Shown: positions 3,404-57,308 of the stretch, one piece after another | Numbering within the stretch: position 1 is the first letter of the stretch | Layout of the letters: each line of letters opens with the position of its first letter | Assembly: GCA_951406725.2 (NCBI GenBank) | Contig: OX597827.1 | Span: 45,322,001-45,386,000, forward strand | Source of the DNA: Octopus vulgaris | Taxonomy: Eukaryota | Direction of reading: 5' to 3' | DNA length: 64,000 bases | The notes under the pieces: model-generated | Told to the model about the DNA's origin: nothing | What the model saw: the letters and a program-made list of their open reading frames with translations, nothing else | Database searches by the model: none | Translations under genes and position numbers: made by a program

Positions 3404-3822
3404 CTCTCTTTTATTCTTTTACTTGTTTCAGTCATGTGACTGTGGCCATGCTAGAGCACCACCTTTAGTCGAGCAAATCGACCCCCAGGACTTATTCGTT
3501 GGAAGTCTGGTACTTATTCTATCGGTCTCTTTTGCCGAACCGCTAAGTTACGGGGACGTAAACACACCAGCATCGGTTGTCAAGCGATGTTGGGGGACAA
3601 GCACAGACACACAAACACAAACACACACACATACGCACACACACACATACACACACACACACACACATACATATATATATACGATGGGCTTCTTTCAGTT
3701 TCCGTCTACCAAATCCACTCACAAGGCTTTGGTCGGCCCGAGTCTATAGTAGAAGACACTTGCCCAAGGTACCACGCAGTGGAACATAACCCGGAACCAT
3801 ATGGTTCGTAAGCAAGCTACTT
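3404..3822 (-). mobile_element. tRNA-derived SINE, family A (internal CA/TA microsatellite)
   Basis: Near-identical to the reverse complement of the full copy at 25004-25420; extreme 5' head missing. Confidence 0.9.
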
Positions 3823-8299: not shown

Positions 8300-8676
8300 T
8301 TTTTTACTCTATTACCCTTTTACTTGTTTCAGTCATTTGACTGTGGCCATGTTAGAGCACCGCCTTTAGTCGAGCAAGTCGACCCCAGGACCTATTCTTT
8401 GTAAGCCTAGTACTTATTCTATCGGTCTCTTTTGCCGAACCGCTAAGTTACAGGGACGTAAATACACCAGCATCAATTGTCAAGCGATGTTGGGGGACAA
8501 ACACAGACACACAAACATATGCACACACATACATACACACATATACATATACATATATATACATATATACGACGGGCGTCTTTCAGTTTCCGTCTACCAA
8601 ATCCACTCAGAAGGCTTTGGTCGGCCCGAGGTTATAGTAGAAGACACTTGCCCAAGGTGTCATGCAGTGGGACTGA
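8300..8676 (-). mobile_element. SINE family A, head truncated
   Basis: Same body as the other family A copies. Confidence 0.9.
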
Positions 8677-8704
8677 AGCTGATAAGCAAAGGTGCTATGC
8701 AGTA

Positions 8705-15395: not shown

Positions 15396-15456
<61 letters not shown>

Positions 15457-15659
15457 ATTCTTTTATTCTTTTACTTATTTCACTCATTTGACTGCAGTCA
15501 TCCTGGAGCACCGCCTTTAGTCGAACAAATATTCTGTGTAAGCCTAGTATTTATTCTATCGGTCTTTTTTGCCGAAACGCTAATTTACGGGTACGTAAAC
15601 ACACCAACATCAAGCGATTGTCAAGCAATGGTGGGGAACAAATACAGACACACAAACAG

Positions 15660-15714
<55 letters not shown>

Positions 15715-15889
15715 TGTATATATGTACAACGGGCTTCTTTCAGTTTCCGCCCACCAAATCCACTCACAAGTCTTTGGTCGGTCCGAGGGTATAGTAGAAG
15801 ACACTTGCCCTAGGTGCCACACAGTGGGACTGAACCCGGAATCATGTGGTTGGGAAGCAAGCTTCTTACCACACAGCCACTCCTGCGCC
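15457..15889 (-). mobile_element. SINE family A, full length
   Basis: Tail through head (...cagccactcctgcgcc) all present. Confidence 0.9.
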
Positions 15890-15907
15890 TATATATATAT
15901 ATATTCT

Positions 15908-17546: not shown

Positions 17547-17708
17547 GCAGGAGTGGCTGTGTGGTAAGTAGCTCGCTTACCAGCCACATGGTTTCGGGTT
17601 CATTCCCACTGCGTGGTACCTTGGGCAAATGTTTTCCACTGTAGCCTCGGACCGACCAATGCCTTGTGAGTGGATTTGGTAGACGGAAACTGAAAGAAGC
17701 CTGTCGTA

Positions 17709-17760
<52 letters not shown>

Positions 17761-18011
17761 TATGTGTGTGTGTGAGGGAGGGGGGGGGGGTTGTGTGTCT
17801 GTGTTTGTCCCCCTAGCATTGCTTGACGACCGATGCTGGTGTGTTTACGTCCCCGTCACTTAGCGGTTCAGCAAAAGAGACCGATAGAATAAGTACTGGG
17901 CTTACAAAGAATAAGTCGTGGGGTCGATTTGCTCGACTAAAGGCGGTACTACAGAATGGCCGTAGTCAAATGACTGAAACGAGTAAAAGAGTTTAAGAGT
18001 AAAGAGTAAAA
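17547..18011 (+). mobile_element. SINE family A, full length
   Basis: A box TGGCTGTGTGG, B box GGTTCATTCCC, (gagtaaaa)n tail. Confidence 0.9.
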
Positions 18012-19349: not shown

Positions 19350-20162
19350 AGATATATGTACACCTTCATAAATGACTTTATTATTCTATTTTAAAGAAAA
19401 TACAGAGGATTATGTAAGATCAAAATATGAATTAGAGCTAAAAATATACGATTTATAACAATAGCCGCTACACACATTTAATGGAGGATCTAATTATTAA
19501 TGAACTGACGTATAATTTAAAGAGAATAATACATATATTTAAGCAATTATAGTAGGTCTGTTGTTCTTGGCATGGAATATACCGTCAAAAACAAATATCT
19601 GGAAAAAGATTGCAAGAATAAGAAATTACAAATGATTGAAACTATGGAAGCGGTATTGTTTATAACGAACTTACTTTTTCAATTTGTTTTGTTAATATTA
19701 TTACGCTGTTAGCGACAGTTCGTATTTTATGATTTCTTGTTATACAACTAAAACCATTACATTATCATTACTAATATTCTTATTATGATAGTTGTAATGA
19801 TTATTATGATTATCATTATTGTTCTTGTCGTTGTTATTATTATTATTATTGCTATTATTATTATTTTTATTATGATAATATATACATATCTATCAATATC
19901 TCACCATATGTTTCTTTCTTTCTTCCTTCCTTCCTTCCTTTCTTTCTCCCCACCCCCTCTCTCTATATATACATATATTTATATAGACTGGTAAAAGCAT
20001 ACACACACAAGTATATGTAGATGTCTAGAAATATAATATATGCATATATGCATGGATGTATATATATATATATATATATACATATATATATGAATATGCA
20101 TATATACATATAAATATGTATATATATACATATATATACATATATACATGTATATATATGTA

Positions 20163-20196
<34 letters not shown>

Positions 20197-20262
20197 CATA
20201 TATATGTATGTACATATATACATATATATACATATATATATACATATATATATGTATGTATG

Positions 20263-20293
<31 letters not shown>

Positions 20294-20473
20294 GCATATA
20301 TATATGTACATACATATATATATACATACGTAAAAATATATATGTACATATATATACCTACGTAAATATATATATATACACATCATACATATATATGTAT
20401 GTACGTATGTATATACATATATATATATACGTATATATACATATATATATATATATACATAGGTACATACATG

Positions 20474-20533
<60 letters not shown>

Positions 20534-21031
20534 AATGCGCGCGCACACGTACAATACCTTGTATTAATTACTCACACTCGCACTTCTATTTGCATTCTTA
20601 TCAAAACATATTGACATACACTTTTGTCTTTGTGTGACTGTTCTGCCTGTTTGATGATATGGCCACAAGGAAACCACGAGCCTGCTCTATTGTCTCATGA
20701 TAGGAAAACCTGAATAGCTTCTAATTTCACCCAAATGACATATCGGTGAAAACAATACAGTAATTATGTCAGCTTCCGAATCGATATAGGAAAGTAAACA
20801 GAATATATTTCAGTTCAGCCATTCGAGACGCCATTCAATTAACAGTTGAACGTATATAGCTTCATACTTCACACCATAATGTGTACACGTATGTATTTTG
20901 AAATTTGAATGTATTCATTATGCATGTTATTAAGTGTTATATACGCGTGGGAAAATATTTGTATGTACACACATTTATGCATATACGCATATACATATAT
21001 TTAAAAAAATGTATGTACAAGTATGTTTTTT

Positions 21032-21080
<49 letters not shown>

Positions 21081-21139
21081 TTATAAAAAAAGAAGTTTGA
21101 AAACGCCACTATATGAGATAAATTTTTATTTTCTTAGAG

Positions 21140-21187
21140 ATTTTACATGTTTCGGTTCTTCTTGAAAAAACGAACCTTATCAAAAAT
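21140..21187 (-). ncRNA. Minimal type I hammerhead ribozyme motif, U3-A8 core variant
   Basis: Minus strand reads ATTT-TTGATAA-GGTTC-(13 nt)-GAACC-GAAA-CATG-TA-AAAT: 4-bp stem I, 5-bp stem II, palindromic stem III, GUA site. Confidence 0.65.
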
Positions 21188-21464
21188 ATTTTAAAAGTTA
21201 AGTGTTTTAAAAAAGTTCATAATTGTTTCTTACAAGTCTCAACAGAGTCCTAGTGGTGGTGCTTTGTGTGTGTTTGTGTGTGTATGTGTGTGTGTAGGGG
21301 GAGAGTTTAATGGCTATCTTGTACGTTGACTAGATTCGTTGGCTGTAATCGTGAAAATGACCGTTGGCCGTAATAGCAGTAGTAGCAGTGACCGTTGGTC
21401 GTAGTAGTAGTAGTAGTGACCGTGGTGGTGGTAGCTGGAGTTGTAACACCAGTTTTATGTATGC

Positions 21465-21495
<31 letters not shown>

Positions 21496-21668
21496 TGTAT
21501 GTATGTATGTATGTATGTATGTATGTATGTATGTATATAGACGATTAGAAAAATGAAGCAAAATGGCAATCAACACATTTTGCAGGAGTTACATATGTTG
21601 TTTAAGATCAGTTTGATTCGGCTCCAATGCTCGTCAGATGAACCTAACTCGTCAGAATCGTAGAAACC

Positions 21669-21722
<54 letters not shown>

Positions 21723-21897
21723 ATAGCCTTCTTCAGCATCGAGTGAAAAACGGGATGGACGCTTCGATTTTGTTTTGGTGCCTCGCTCTGTTGTACACGA
21801 CTATGAAGATTTGCATCCCCAACGTATATCGTCTTTTTCGTCTTTTTATCAAACTTATACTTATATTGTAATACATGTCCTTGGAGTAGTAATTATA

Positions 21898-21986
21898 CGA
21901 TGCTGAAGAAGGCTATTGACATACAAATTACATCAATTATGCATTGATATAAACCGTCTAATAAAAGCCAGAAACATATGTACCGC
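21898..21986 (+). ncRNA. Type I hammerhead ribozyme motif, long stem II
   Basis: CTGAAGA (21903-21909), 61-nt stem II region closed by ggct/agcc, GAAA (21971-21974), palindromic ACATATGT, GUA site; stem I is weak. Confidence 0.65.
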
Positions 21987-22088
21987 TAAATCCTTTGCAT
22001 CATGTTTTCATTTTGATAAATATACTCTATCACCTACACCACTAAACGGCATATACAGGTGCTTACAATTATCAAGTATTCACCCTGA

Positions 22089-22147
<59 letters not shown>

Positions 22148-22265
22148 TGTATAGAGGGCATTATTACACATAAATGCCTCACACTAAGAGGGACATAAGT
22201 CATTACTACCAAAATTTCACTAATCGTACCTAATGCAGTTCTTCAAAGCAAGACATTTAAAAGAT

Positions 22266-22342
22266 GAATTTAGTTCTATATCACCTGTGATTTCACACTT
22301 AACGCATAAAAATACGTCTATGTTCATCAGTAGAACTGATTC
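22266..22342 (-). ncRNA. Type I hammerhead ribozyme (left-arm copy)
   Basis: Exact reverse complement of 22518-22594. Confidence 0.85.
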
Positions 22343-22517
22343 TGAACACATCATAAATAAACGACCAACATTACCTGGCGAAGTCGAACAGACATCTGCT
22401 CTCTCCGGCGAAGCACATGGAGATGTTTATAAATCATATATTCGGTAAATGGCGGAGAGAGCAGATGTCTGTTCGACTTCGCCAGGTAATGTTGGTCGTT
22501 TATTTATGATGTGTTCA

Positions 22518-22594
22518 GAATCAGTTCTACTGATGAACATAGACGTATTTTTATGCGTTAAGTGTGAAATCACAGGTGATATAGAACTAAATTC
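22518..22594 (+). ncRNA. Type I hammerhead ribozyme (right-arm copy)
   Basis: Stem I AGTTCTA/TAGAACT extended by GAAT/ATTC; CTGATGA (22530-22536); stem II acat/gtgt plus gacgta/tgcgtt; GAAA (22566-22569); stem III tca(cagg)tga; AUA site, predicted cleavage after 22581. Confidence 0.88.
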
Positions 22595-22845
22595 ATTTTT
22601 TAAATGTCTTGCTTTGAAGAACTGCATTAGGTACGATTAGTGAAATTTTGGTAGTAATGACTTATGTCCCTCTTAGTGTGAGGCATTTATGTGTAATAAT
22701 GCCCTCTATACAATATAAATTAATATGTTCTAAAGAAAAAAATTATTTTCGAATTTTTCTCTTATGAGGTTTTTCACGCTAACTACCTGATAATTTCTTG
22801 TTAAGATTCCTTATTAAGAAGTTATCCTTAATTGTTAAATATATA

Positions 22846-23182
22846 TACACGAGCAAAACGCCCCCCCCCACGTCCAATGGACGGTGCTGAGTTGTCAAAC
22901 ATTTAAACCAAATTTTCTCAAAGCAACTTGTCCGAAAAACACTGATTTAACCTAAATTTGAGACACCAGCAAAAGAAGAAATAAAGATAGACTTTTTTCT
23001 ATTCCAAAGAATGCTTTATCGATCGCATTCTCACCTGGAATTGATTTTTGTAATTTTTTCAAGACTTATACACGCCCTGATACCGTCGGTATCTACATAT
23101 TAAATTTGAGCGCAATCGGATGGAGGATGCCCGAGATCCTAGAAGACACATACACAGACAGACAGAACGAATTTTATATAAT
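22846..23182 (-). mobile_element. Probable non-autonomous Helitron-like element
   Basis: Terminal block aaatttgagcgcaatcggatg...cacagacagacag...ttttatataata resembles the end of the Helitron at 39100-39200; termini not canonical. Confidence 0.4.
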
Positions 23183-23444
23183 AAAATCAACAATTGTTGT
23201 TTTTATTAAATTAATTATATTTCACCCTATATCTGTAATGGCTATTTTACTCCCCTACGACAAAACTACGAATATTTTTTCGGCAGTACTATTTTGTGAC
23301 TCACGTGGTAGAATTCTGGAGGGAAATACGAATTCACTTGTCTATATAAATGTGGATATGCTGATTAACTCTTATATTTTTCGATGTCGCTTGATCGAAA
23401 ATATAGGAGGTAAGTTTTCCTAGCATTTCTAGATTTATAGGAAT

Positions 23445-23503
23445 ATTATGTCGATAAAGGAAACGAATCTTATGATTAAAATCCAGAAACGTACGTCCAT
23501 AAT
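23445..23503 (+). ncRNA. Type I hammerhead-like motif with variant core (U3, C4, A8)
   Basis: ATTATG-TCGATAA-a-gga..aatc(ttat)gatt..tcc-a-GAAA-CGTACG-TC-CATAAT: 6-bp stem I, palindromic stem III, GUC site. Confidence 0.6.
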
Positions 23504-23862
23504 TAACCGGAGACTGTGGTTTCATTATTTTTCTTCTCTTTTTTTGCCATATGTGAGTTACAAATATTGTTGTCTGTGGAGACTTATTTTTGTAGTAAAA
23601 GGAAGTAGTAGTCTTTTGGCTGCTATTTCTAAAATTTTCGGTATGTGGTTTAGCAGCTTGTTGCAAAAAACCCTTATTATTATAATTATATATATATATT
23701 CAGGAAAAAATCTATAGTCAGAAGGCAAATTTTAATACTATGATGTTCTTAACAATCAAATCAACCTCTCTATCTGTATATCTATCTACCCTCTTTATAA
23801 TGTTGGCAAACGAAATGGAAATAAGTATATGTATTGTCCGTTTGATGGAAGACTTCTATAAA

Positions 23863-23946
23863 TGGCTGAAGATTGCTCAACATTTTAAAACTGATGTAAT
23901 ACTTACAATGTTTAATAAAATGAAGTAGCATGAAACGATCGTACCA
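23863..23946 (+). ncRNA. Type I hammerhead ribozyme motif, long stem II
   Basis: TGG-CTGAAGA (23866-23872), 59-nt stem II (tgct/agca, catttta/taaaatg, aaac/gttt), GAAA (23932-23935), CGATCG, TA, CCA. Confidence 0.75.
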
Positions 23947-24965
23947 AATTACCGAAGATATACTTGTTTATTTTGATTATATATTTACACATATATACAT
24001 ATATACATACATACATACACAGACACACACACACATGCACACATGTATATATCATGGATTTGCAGAAATCTATATGTAATAATATTTGATAAAAATAATA
24101 CATATTTTAAGATACATCAGTGTCGTTTGCTGCAAATATCCACGGCTGAATCTACGAAGAATATATATTACTTCCATTGAAACAAACAAAATTTTAGTGA
24201 AATTATCTCTAGCTCACCATCATTTACATATTGGAAAAAACTCATACAGCAGAATTTCATAACAAAAACTGGTGACAGAGCGTTGTTTCGAATGTAGGTA
24301 CCACAGCAGAAATTACATACAATGTTTCATAAACTAAGATAATGTGTTTTCTTAATAACTTAAAGGATGAAAAATATCGGCTGTCAAACGAGAATCAGTA
24401 TGTATATGGTAATGTATCGTTAGAAGATCTATTGTTCGTTACTTGGACCATTTAGAGACAGCGTATACGTATCTGGGCGAGTTAATACAGCAACAACAAC
24501 AAAAACAAGACGAAACCACTCGGCCAGTTTCTTACTCACAGCTGGCGAAAATTCTGTGATTTATTCACCAATTTAGATTTTTTTCAGAATGAGAATAAAT
24601 ATACCTTTATTAAAAATATGGTATAAGATTTCCATATACATATATGATTTCTGTATATATCAAATGGATGTTTTATAAATCTATTCCGAACATACAATAA
24701 CAGCCACACCAACAACCCAACACACCTCCTTCATCAGCTGCCCTACGGATATCACTATGGTTTCGACACCTGGCAGTACCGTTCAATCCGGCATTTTCAA
24801 CAGCACTACTAAAATAAGTGTTGTTTGGGAACAAACATAATCTTAGGTATCACCACATTCATTCAATCTTAATTCTTGGAAGGATTAAATACTAACATTA
24901 TTAATTAAACTCCAACAAAGAAACCACATTTACCCTATGTACAAAAACAGTATCGGTAAATAAAA

Positions 24966-25003
<38 letters not shown>

Positions 25004-25005
<2 letters not shown>

Positions 25006-25420
25006 CGCAGGAGTGGCTGTGTGGTAAGTAGCTTGTTTACCAACCACATGGTTCTGGGTTCAGTCCCACTGCGTGGCATCTTGGGCAAGTGTCTTCTGCT
25101 ATAGCCTCGGGCCGACCAATGCCTTGTGAGTGGATTTGGTAGACAGAAACTGAAAGAAGCCTGTCGTATATATGTATATATATGTATGTGTGTGTATATG
25201 TTTGTGTGTCTGTGTTTGTCCCTCTAGCATTGCTTGACAACCAATGCTGGTGTGTTTACGTCCCTGTCACTTAACGGTTCGGCAAAAGAGACCGATAGAA
25301 TAAGTACTGGGCTTACAAAGAATAAGTCCCGGGGTTGATTTGCTCGACTAAAGGCGGTGCTCCAGCATGGCCGCAGTCAAATGACTGAAACAAGTAAAAG
25401 AGTAAAAGAGTAAAAGAGTA
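25004..25420 (+). mobile_element. SINE family A, full length
   Basis: Head ggcgcaggagTGGCTGTGTGG...GGTTCAGTCCC (Pol III A and B boxes), internal microsatellite, (agtaaaag)n tail; inserted in (TA)n. Confidence 0.92.
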
Positions 25421-25529
25421 CATATATATATGAATTTCTATATGAATTATATGTGTGTGTATACATGCATATATGTATGTGTGTGTATGTATGTAAGTAC
25501 GTATGTGTATGTATGCATCTATGTGTGTG

Positions 25530-35017: not shown

Positions 35018-35220
35018 TTTTCTTTTACTCTATTACTGGATTCAGTCATTTGATTGCGGCCGTGGTGGAGCACCGCCTTTAGTCGAACGAATCGACCTCA
35101 TGACTTATTCTTTGTAAGCTTATACTATCGGTCTCTTTTGCCGAACCGCTAAGTTACGGGGACGTAAACATACCACCATCAGATGTCAAGCGATGGTAGG
35201 GGGACAAGTACAGACACACA

Positions 35221-35271
<51 letters not shown>

Positions 35272-35354
35272 GACGGGCTTCTTTCAGTTTCCGTCTACCA
35301 AATCCACTCACAAGGCTTTGGTCGGTCCGTGGCAATAGTAGAAGATACTTGTCC
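35018..35354 (-). mobile_element. SINE family A, head truncated
   Basis: Family A body. Confidence 0.88.
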
Positions 35355-35442
35355 AATACACTCAGATAGAGAAATTAAGGCAAATAGGCACAAGGAGCTG
35401 CGCTTGGTAGTGCAGTGAAAGCACGTGATAAAAATAAGACTA

Positions 35443-35501
<59 letters not shown>

Positions 35502-35502
<1 letters not shown>

Positions 35503-36410
35503 CATCCCCATTAGAAGAGGAATATTCCAGGGAGACACACTCTCCACTCCTTTTCTGCTTGGTACTGACACCTTTATCTGACATGCTAAACAGAAGTGGA
35601 TGTGGCAAAACAGTCAGCCACGTCTTATATATGGATGATCTAAAACTGTACACTACAAATGATAAACAGCTACAAACATTATTACAGACAGTAAATGGAT
35701 CTACTAAAGAAATAAATATGAAATTTGGCTTAGAAAAATGTGTGAAAGCAACTTTGAAAAGAGGAAAACTAGTTAAGAGTAGTTACATCACACTAGACAG
35801 AGCAAAGGAAAAAAGAGAATTAGACCGAAGCCAGACATACAAATATTTAGGAATCAATGAACTAGATACGATACAACATACACAGATGAAAGAGAAAATA
35901 TTATAGATGAGTTAGATTAATACCGAAAACAGAGCTCAATGCAAAAAAAAACAAGATAATAGGTATCGACACTCTAGCCGTCCCAGTTATAAGTTAGAGC
36001 TACAATATTCTTAACTGGACTCTAAATGAACTAATCAAAAATAGACAGGAAAACAAGAAAGATAATGACAGGATTTAGGATGCACCACCCAAAATCTGAC
36101 ATAGAAAGGTTATATATACAACATATGGGAGGTGGTAGAGACCTTATACAGCTAGAAAACTATTACAAAATAACCACCTTAGGACTACAGAGATATCTAC
36201 TTCAAAAGCAAGGAAAACTAATACAAATAGCCACAAAACACGAACAAAACAAAAAACAGTTGTCAGTCTTTAAGGAAGCTGACAAATACAAAAAAGAAGT
36301 CATAGTACCTAACAACTATGAAGGAAAAGAATAAACAACAAAAGCTGTACAACAACTGAAATCCAAACTAAAAAGGGAACAGCAGCAGATCATGATAAAA
36401 TGATGGCAGC
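35502..36410 (+). mobile_element. Degraded reverse transcriptase fragment of an R4/Dong-like LINE
   Basis: RRGIFQGDTLSPLLFCL, SHVLYMDDLKLY, FGLEKC, YKYLGI, MHHPKSDIERLY...GGR; frameshifts and stops; preceded by (TAA)n. Confidence 0.92.
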
Positions 36411-50176: not shown

Positions 50177-50179
<3 letters not shown>

Positions 50180-50445
50180 GGGACAAGAACTCAAAACATC
50201 CAGACAGTTAGGTGATGCAATAAAGGAGGACAACAAAACATTCAGATAGACGATACAAAGAAAACAAGGACCGAAGTTTTCTTTCCTCAGTTGAGTTCCA
50301 GATTATCTTTGCAATTTCAGCTGGTTATACTCGAGATTGCCCCAGCCTGACCAGCCCCAAGGAAAAACTAAGCTAAGAGTACTAGATTCTTTGCAAGAAA
50401 GCAGCGAATGTATACGAAAGTAAAGAAGAAAAAAACGGAGAATAT
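50177..50445. mobile_element. TA-embedded short element, same family as the 50673 hairpin
   Basis: aatgggacaagaac.caaaacatcc.gaca...gacgatacaaag is the inverted match of 50850-50930. Confidence 0.75.
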
Positions 50446-50672: not shown

Positions 50673-50676
<4 letters not shown>

Positions 50677-50886
50677 GGACAACAAAACATCCAGATAGAC
50701 GATACAAAAAAAAACACGAAGGGGTCATTCGAAGCCCCCACCCTCAGTCAAGAACCGGATCATCCTCGCAATTTCGGCTGATTAATCTTGCGAGGATGAT
50801 CGGTTCTTGACTGAGGGTGAAGGGCTTCGAATGACCTGTCCGTGTTTTGCTTTGTATCGTCTGTCTGGATGTTTTGTTATCCCCTT
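50673..50886. repeat. ~99-bp imperfect inverted repeat with a 16-nt spacer
   Basis: Arms 50673-50771 and 50788-50886; left end abuts (TA)n. Confidence 0.9.
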
Positions 50887-56796: not shown

Positions 56797-57108
56797 CTTT
56801 TACTCTTTTACTCTTTTACTTGTTTCAGTCATTTGACTCTGTGGTCATGCTGGAGCACCGCCTTTAGTCGAGCAAATCGACCCCAGGACTTATTCTTTGT
56901 AAGCCGAATACTTATTCTATCGGTCACTTTTGCCGAGCCGCTGGGTTACGGGAACGTAAACACACCAGCATCAATTGTCAAGCGATGTTGCGGGGGACAA
57001 ATACAGACACACAAACACACACACACACATATATGTACATATATACACATACATACATACATACATACATACATACATACATACATACATACATACATAC
57101 ATACATAC

Positions 57109-57146
<38 letters not shown>

Positions 57147-57308
57147 GACGGGCTTCTTTCAGCTTCCATCTACCAAATCTACTCACAAGGCTTTGGTCGG
57201 TCCGAGTTTATAGTAGAAGACACTTGCCCAAGGTGCACGCAGTGGTACTGAACCCGGAACCATGTGGTTGGTAAGCAATCTACTTACCACACAGTCACTT
57301 TTGCGCCT
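56797..57308 (-). mobile_element. SINE family A, full length
   Basis: Tail through head; expanded internal (CATA)n/(TA)n. Confidence 0.9.

Follow-up and report, generated by a model that had tools for sequence, protein, structure and literature searches.

The foldback at positions 22140–22720 of the Octopus vulgaris window analysed here (the whole 64,000-nucleotide stretch of contig OX597827.1) is genuine: it belongs to an abundant repeat family, has no ORF and carries a hammerhead ribozyme motif on each arm. It is likely the pLTR of a Penelope-like retroelement that was inserted head-to-head into (TA)n as an integration by-product, with the ribozyme likely carried as a passenger. Structures of this kind have already been published, and the locus is likely a new example of them, not an evolved RNA switch.

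The foldback consists of two inverted arms, 22140–22407 and 22453–22720, of 268 nt each, which differ at one position and form the longest inverted pair within 20000–25000. The left arm lies on the minus strand as the inverted copy of 22453–22720 and adjoins a (TA)n microsatellite (22095–22139, the array running to 22147) that is the likely insertion target; this arm ends at the short 3′ end of the family and is likely a 5′-shortened inverted pLTR. Between the arms is a 45-nt spacer (22408–22452, plus strand) of the same repeat family, which would be the 5′ part of the presumed pLTR and which contains a palindromic TATA-like octamer (22426–22433) that reads TATAAA on both strands, with its centre at 22429.5 and the symmetry axis at 22430. 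The right arm is the direct copy, on the plus strand, and its inner end is occupied by a GC-rich plus-strand hairpin (22451–22483), a heptamer of which has direct-repeat occurrences at 22377 and 22407. Beyond the right arm the same family continues through a one-sided extension of 119 nt (22721–22839, plus strand), likely the “tail” that separates the two 3′ ends in Penelope elements, and the element ends at (TA)4 (22840–22847). A preliminary description of this DNA had reported the 268-bp foldback with its one mismatch and 45-nt spacer, and the arm coordinates were re-derived identically. It had also anchored the arms in (TA)n, which holds for the left end, at the long (TA)n of 22095–22147, whereas the right arm continues for 119 nt before (TA)4 is reached; both the 3′ extension as part of the element and the great abundance of the family were overlooked in that first reading. 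The sole arm mismatch, 22263 G / 22597 T, lies just outside the ribozyme and corresponds to an arm–arm divergence of 0.37% (95% range 0.01–2.1%, from this one mismatch). This value fits the earlier characterisation of the element as young, but conversion between the arms could yield the same identity; the arm pair is either recent or homogenised.

Each arm carries one hammerhead motif. A hammerhead descriptor applied to the 64 kb matched exactly two sites, at +22530 and –22330, and matched none in each of 40 shuffled controls at both thresholds. Both motifs have a stem I of 7 bp, a stem II of 4 bp and a stem III of 5 bp, and present CUGANGA, GAAA and an NUH site in that order, here as the core CUGAUGA/GAAA and the site AUA. 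In the right arm (22518–22594, plus strand) stem I pairs 22523–29 with 22582–88 and is prolonged by a paired 4-bp extension (22518–21 with 22591–94), the core occupies 22530–36 and 22566–69, a long stem II spans 22537–65, and the palindromic stem III at 22569–80 is closed by a 2-nt loop; the cut is predicted between 22581 and 22582. The left-arm motif (22266–22342, minus strand) mirrors 22518–22594, its core starting at 22330 and its predicted cut falling at 22279/22278. With stem I open, as in type I hammerheads, all 27 listed pairs are standard, and the 2-nt loop leaves stem III four usable pairs in the monomer. The descriptor scan thus bears out the complete, outward-pointing type I hammerhead that had been claimed for each strand, with its 7+4-bp stem I and AUA site. 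The Infernal search with Hammerhead_1 that had been proposed alongside this claim fared differently, as the Rfam hammerhead models gave no match on the arms, whether the cut-off was the gathering score or an E of 10. Rfam microRNA matches to the element had generic hairpin scores far under gathering and were rejected.

To place the foldback in a family, contigs of four of 24 listed public sequencing runs (X1, X2, X3 and X12) were aligned to 22360–23150. X1–X3 come from three studies with two organism labels, and X1 may be the source of the window. Summed contig depth over the spacer, arm and extension in X1–X3 ranges from thousands to over a million, compared to ~43–58 for the listed contigs; such depth does not equal copy number and is read here only as “very abundant”. 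High contig depth extends across 22414–22467 (spacer and inner right arm) in the three runs. Spacer, arm and 119-nt extension belong to one very abundant repeat family. Forty contigs of X1 pass from the element into (TA)n at about 22717, which is also where the left arm stops, and other contigs continue past 22717 to about 22845, with depth staying high to 22845; therefore the family has two 3′ ends.

The inversion junction recurs as well. At 22404, inside the left arm, depth is 4487, 8751 and 9317 in X1–X3, respectively, or ~104-, 185- and 161-fold the median for the eight listed contigs per run, figures that give no copy number, and at most two records per run fit two places. The records at this position should therefore span the inversion. 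In one X1 contig a form of the junction displaced by 4 nt is bridged, flanked by 50 letters to either side, and no contig among the rows listed contains the exact junction with 31 letters on both sides. Two other head-to-head joints, 22549/22696 and 22674/22755, are present at single-locus depth, and there the ribozyme is broken or absent. The joint 22409/22493 is ambiguous, and 22379/22494 and 22382/22493 were rejected as new inversions because they are deletion variants viewed through the mirror arm. Contigs of X12, a run only presumed to be RNA, cover the element and the junction; no end peaks are listed among their end positions, and contigs cannot reveal ends, strand or level. A>G plus T>C changes account for 10 of the 38 changes listed in X12 and for 14/47, 16/53 and 18/53 in X1–X3, shares that carry no information on editing since contigs drop rare variants.

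The copy in the window departs from the family majority at at least nine places in all three of the DNA-type runs X1–X3, eight of the nine listed being within the arms, and it therefore belongs to a minor subfamily. Among the 40 variant rows listed, the hammerhead core changes only at the free position N7, and the pair is retained in six of ten paired-site variants, or in seven if 22529 A>G and 22582 T>C, which together make a double change in stem I, are counted. The expected retention is 19% for any substitution and 57% for transitions alone, so that 6–7/10 exceeds the first but not the second. The family-majority base at 22537 gives stem II a U.U flank.

The anatomy of the element is that of an ORF-less Penelope-type insertion: a hammerhead lies within the repeat, the inverted copy is head-to-head and shortened at its 5′ side, and a tail is present on one end only. 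Published Penelope insertions have a pLTR bearing a hammerhead, next to which lies an inverted copy truncated at its 5′ end; only one end has a tail, and (TA)n is the target in several clades (PMC8557442). In rotifer Pen2a_Av the inverted pLTR lies head-to-head with the direct one and falls 37 bp short of it, and solo pLTRs exist (PMC3846280); the element shares with this arrangement the shorter inverted copy (by 45 nt here), the one-sided tail, the two-way TATA and a hairpin near the junction (PMC3846280; PMC8557442 Fig. 2). It differs from the Pen2a_Av type in that no ORF follows, a single junction recurs at high depth and the tail measures 119 nt, as against a published 30–40 nt. The length of the tail weighs against the Penelope reading.

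Penelope-like elements of the Hydra clade provide a second comparison. Like Hydra-1_Obim and Penelope-13_HM, the element has a (TA)n target and a type I hammerhead near its 3′ end (PMC8557442 files S1 and S2), and its canonical hammerhead has the palindromic stem III with a 1–3 nt loop seen in this clade. A U.U stem II flank is found in 14 of 25 Hydra-clade families and in the majority form of the foldback family, and Penelope-13_HM carries a hammerhead on each strand by way of an inverted copy (supplement, PMC8557442). The AUA site, by contrast, stands against a GUH site in all 25 Hydra-clade rows, which also counts against the Penelope reading; stem III has 5 bp here rather than 3–4, stem II is much longer here, and the hammerhead listed for Hydra-1_Obim is of different sequence (PMC8557442). 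Six short words from the window gave no match in the supplement of that paper, in which line breaks can conceal matches. A further parallel comes from Schistosoma, where dual hammerheads 100–700 bp apart on opposite strands were reported in 2014 (PMC4209133), the two cores of the foldback being 200 nt apart. The authors read these Cercyon pairs as truncated Penelope-like elements; they are minimal motifs without stem III, whereas the foldback hammerhead has all three stems (PMC4209133). For O. vulgaris itself, Penelope-like elements are reported as 190 consensus families making up 6.83% of the genome, in a paper whose main text makes no mention of ribozymes (PMC13282606).

We searched the window for coding sequence that might belong to the element. 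It contains 755 frames of at least 45 aa, of which 539 were dropped as low-complexity and 216 were run against Pfam. None of these 216 complexity-filtered frames matched a GIY-YIG family, and the only curated-level Pfam match is a reverse transcriptase at 35502–35903 (PF00078, E 4e-12), 13 kb from the foldback. Among these frames there was thus no sign of the linked RT/GIY-YIG ORF that the preliminary description proposed to look for, nor of the RT plus GIY-YIG ORF of an autonomous Penelope-like element, and the tail (22721–22839) has no clear ORF start. We infer a Penelope parent for the family, no Penelope ORF having been found. Of the earlier view that this is a recent, non-coding, ribozyme-bearing retroelement of Penelope type, the lack of coding sequence, the hammerhead and the Penelope-type anatomy stand, while the recency rests on the one mismatch. 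The best relative of the RT fragment is 61% identical, and the fragment is presumably of the non-LTR R4/Dong type.

No host exon was recognised in the window, and read-through across the foldback stays hypothetical; a sigma-70 promoter scan gave 0 matches, but such a model has no bearing on an animal locus. A splice-like donor is seen at 22486 and acceptor-like AGs at 22518, the start of stem I, and at 22575, in the stem III loop; in D. virilis Penelope the intron ends where helix I starts (PMC4209133). The window is animal DNA rich in microsatellites. It holds at least ten copies of a short interspersed repeat, ~400 nt long and itself enclosing a microsatellite, at 3406–3822, 8302–8677, 15402–15904, 17547–18008, 25003–25431, 35021–35356, 56799–57299 and other positions. 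Directly to the right of the element, at 22848–23185, lies a different repeat of still higher depth, which includes an (ACAG)n tract close to its end and which we take to resemble non-autonomous Helentron-associated elements.

Two weaker foldbacks of like build, from other families, add to the reading as a Penelope insertion. The first is older, with arms of ~100 nt (50673–50772 and 50788–50886, the feature extending to 50946) that are identical at 90 of 98 aligned bases around a 15-nt spacer; an extension of ~59 nt is confined to its right side, each end abuts (TA)n, and it carries a decayed hammerhead-like core at +50811 and –50747. The second comprises the inverted ends 21721–21741 and 21898–21918, identical at 21/21 positions and containing a CTGAAGA core together with the beginning of a stem; it has a 156-nt interior and (TA)25 on the left, and no tail was established. 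Neither has any sequence in common with the main element. A further 3′ end of the first family was noted at 50178–50271 on the minus strand, and minus-strand CTGACGA words occur at 21655 and 21637.

Relatives were also sought in metagenome and viral contigs. The family-specific pattern had 0 matches in either collection, and a relaxed hammerhead pattern found 39 and 4 loci, respectively, with a stem I of at least 4 together with a stem II of at least 3 in 0/43. No relative with flanks was present in the metagenome or viral contigs searched. Four of the loci (L004, L011, L025 and L028) were rejected as relatives, being unrelated to the foldback element and without a clear hammerhead; they are related contigs of one metagenome, 75–94% identical, which have in common a hammerhead-like core and a palindromic stem III without adjacent stems I and II. 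The family was not found described in the literature searched, outside of which lay repeat libraries and the supplements of bioRxiv 10.64898/2026.07.22.740005, and the deposited repeat libraries of genome papers may already contain its consensus.

How such a product could arise is suggested by work on one purified Penelope protein: it can cut both strands of the target and extend them, and synthesis begins at either of two sites inside the RNA, which set the limits of the tail (PMC11167929). In the mechanism that we propose, a Penelope RT-endonuclease supplied in trans would cut (TA)n on both strands and prime reverse transcription from each end. One cDNA would begin at the short site (~22720) and the other at the long site (~22840), leaving a one-sided tail; both would extend towards the RNA 5′ end and be joined there, one of them shorter by 45 nt. 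Thus, we infer two-strand priming, with one cDNA per start site, followed by joining at the far ends. A published alternative route, the self-priming foldback of a single cDNA, would lead to the same product, and the choice between the two for the origin of inverted pLTRs is treated as an open point in PMC8557442 and PMC3846280. The recurring junction could reflect either a master locus copied many times or a fixed RNA 5′ end combined with a fixed stop point. The ribozyme would act in a tandem precursor RNA, likely as a stem III dimer or with protein help, and would likely be a passenger in the head-to-head copy, from which read-through RNA would form long dsRNA without cleavage. In the same tested Penelope the ribozyme needed the protein, insertion in vitro did not require its cleavage, and RNA ends were not observed at the site (PMC11167929).

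An alternative that we regard as unlikely is an independent non-autonomous element, retrozyme- or SINE-like and of ~430 nt (22408–22839), which has no surviving parent sharing its pLTR and is mobilised in trans by Penelope or another RT, the foldback being one amplified subfamily. The very high depth, the lack of an ORF and the differences from the majority at nine or more places in X1–X3, which mark a minor subfamily, would all fit. Animal non-LTR retrozymes are likewise non-coding, abundant and low in GC, have a type I hammerhead and a similar unit size (170–400 nt in PMC7229834), and have been argued to derive from pLTRs (bioRxiv 10.64898/2026.07.22.740005). These retrozymes are, however, defined by head-to-tail tandems that yield circles (PMC7229834; bioRxiv 10.64898/2026.07.22.740005), whereas the foldback is head-to-head with a tail; no such tandem is found in the window, and none of the 15 joints listed is a same-strand 3′-to-5′ joint. 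Moreover, both the inversions and the pair of 3′ ends are characteristic of Penelope elements.

Two proposals give the TATA on the axis a function. It is doubtful that a Penelope-derived foldback subfamily, amplified with one fixed junction, forms a mirror cassette that sends self-cleaving RNA outward in both directions and yields an uncleavable 268-bp dsRNA on read-through. A little more doubtful is a symmetric promoter cassette or start-site switch, selected and amplified as a unit, in which the axis TATA fires into both arms, so that single-arm RNAs from 22453–22459 and the mirror positions self-cleave and read-through dsRNA cannot. The geometry is suggestive. The centre of the octamer lies within 0.5 nt of the axis, with a chance of 4e-4 for this octamer, or of 5e-3 if either of the two-way TATA octamers may lie up to 2 nt from a centre, a coincidence spotted post hoc; the inner arm ends, 22453 and in one X1 contig 22459, are 25 and 31 nt downstream of the TATA; and the junction recurs at high depth. 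There is also a precedent in the rotifer pLTR, whose two-way TATA was remarked on as a possible bidirectional promoter (PMC3846280). The 15-nt spacer of the 50673 foldback, by comparison, has no centred TATA, and an RNA started in the spacer would lack the junction and so could not propagate it. Inversions also occur at points that destroy the ribozyme, and the dispensability of cleavage for insertion by the one Penelope tested speaks against selection for such a switch.

Predicted folding bears on the switch from both sides. In the full foldback the active fold lies ~100 kcal/mol above the hairpin and its computed share is nil, in agreement with the earlier suggestion that read-through RNA would hide the ribozyme in ~270 bp of dsRNA (a 268-bp duplex in our computation). 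Such masking needs no selection because it follows from the duplex itself. The “on” state is predicted to be weak: minimum-energy folds do not display the active three-stem form, and the active-fold share, in a model that leaves out tertiary contacts, falls from 2e-3 in the bare motif to between 1e-5 and 4e-5 when the native 5′ flank is included up to 22600, and to about 1e-6 in the whole arm. In spacer-started RNA a rival hairpin (22510–22541) is predicted to win; it would be weaker in the family-majority form because it pairs A22537, a base that differs from the majority. The palindromic stem III, with a computed self-duplex energy of –13.2 kcal/mol, points to dimer-type cleavage, stems of this type having been described as acting in dimers (PMC4209133). 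Dimer-type cleavage is unavailable in cis because the pair is head-to-head, and the switch would thus lack a tandem partner. The preliminary description had proposed a start-site-dependent cleavage switch with a spacer-started transcript as its cleaving state. This is not supported, and nothing observed speaks for a switch shaped by selection, given that the geometry is a documented Penelope by-product, that other copies invert in ways that break or drop the ribozyme, that two more foldbacks of like build from other families lie in the window, and that the active fold of such a transcript is predicted at only 1e-5 to 4e-5.

A DNA transposon of the foldback or MITE type, in which the 268-bp arms would be terminal inverted repeats, TA the target and the hammerhead captured cargo, is very improbable: long near-perfect inverted repeats, TA ends and a recurring junction are what it would leave, but the family runs 119 nt beyond the right repeat only and is not bounded by repeats at both ends, it stops at either of two 3′ ends and inverts at varying points, and the ribozyme core is conserved across variants among the 40 rows listed. 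Near-perfect palindromes are a known artefact of long reads and amplification, and no listed contig covers the whole stretch; a read-level assembly artefact, which the preliminary description had named as something that would refute its reading, is nevertheless scarcely credible and largely refuted, since runs from separate studies, with two organism labels, cover the region of the junction and the mirror stops at a natural short end of the family, with differing flanks and one mismatch.

As a Penelope insertion product, the foldback adds an abundant hammerhead family that goes undetected by Rfam, and it is itself an unusually clean example, combining two 3′ ends, one tail and one recurring junction. 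If the mirror cassette were true, ribozyme switches that depend on the start site would number in the tens to hundreds across the genome, together with ready ADAR or Dicer substrates; and should the centring of the TATA and the dependence on start site prove real, this would be a natural, dispersed ribozyme switch, of which no case was found in the literature searched at the level of titles and listings. With its thousands-fold depth and varied junctions, the family could allow genome data alone to test two-strand priming against self-priming as the origin of inverted pLTRs.
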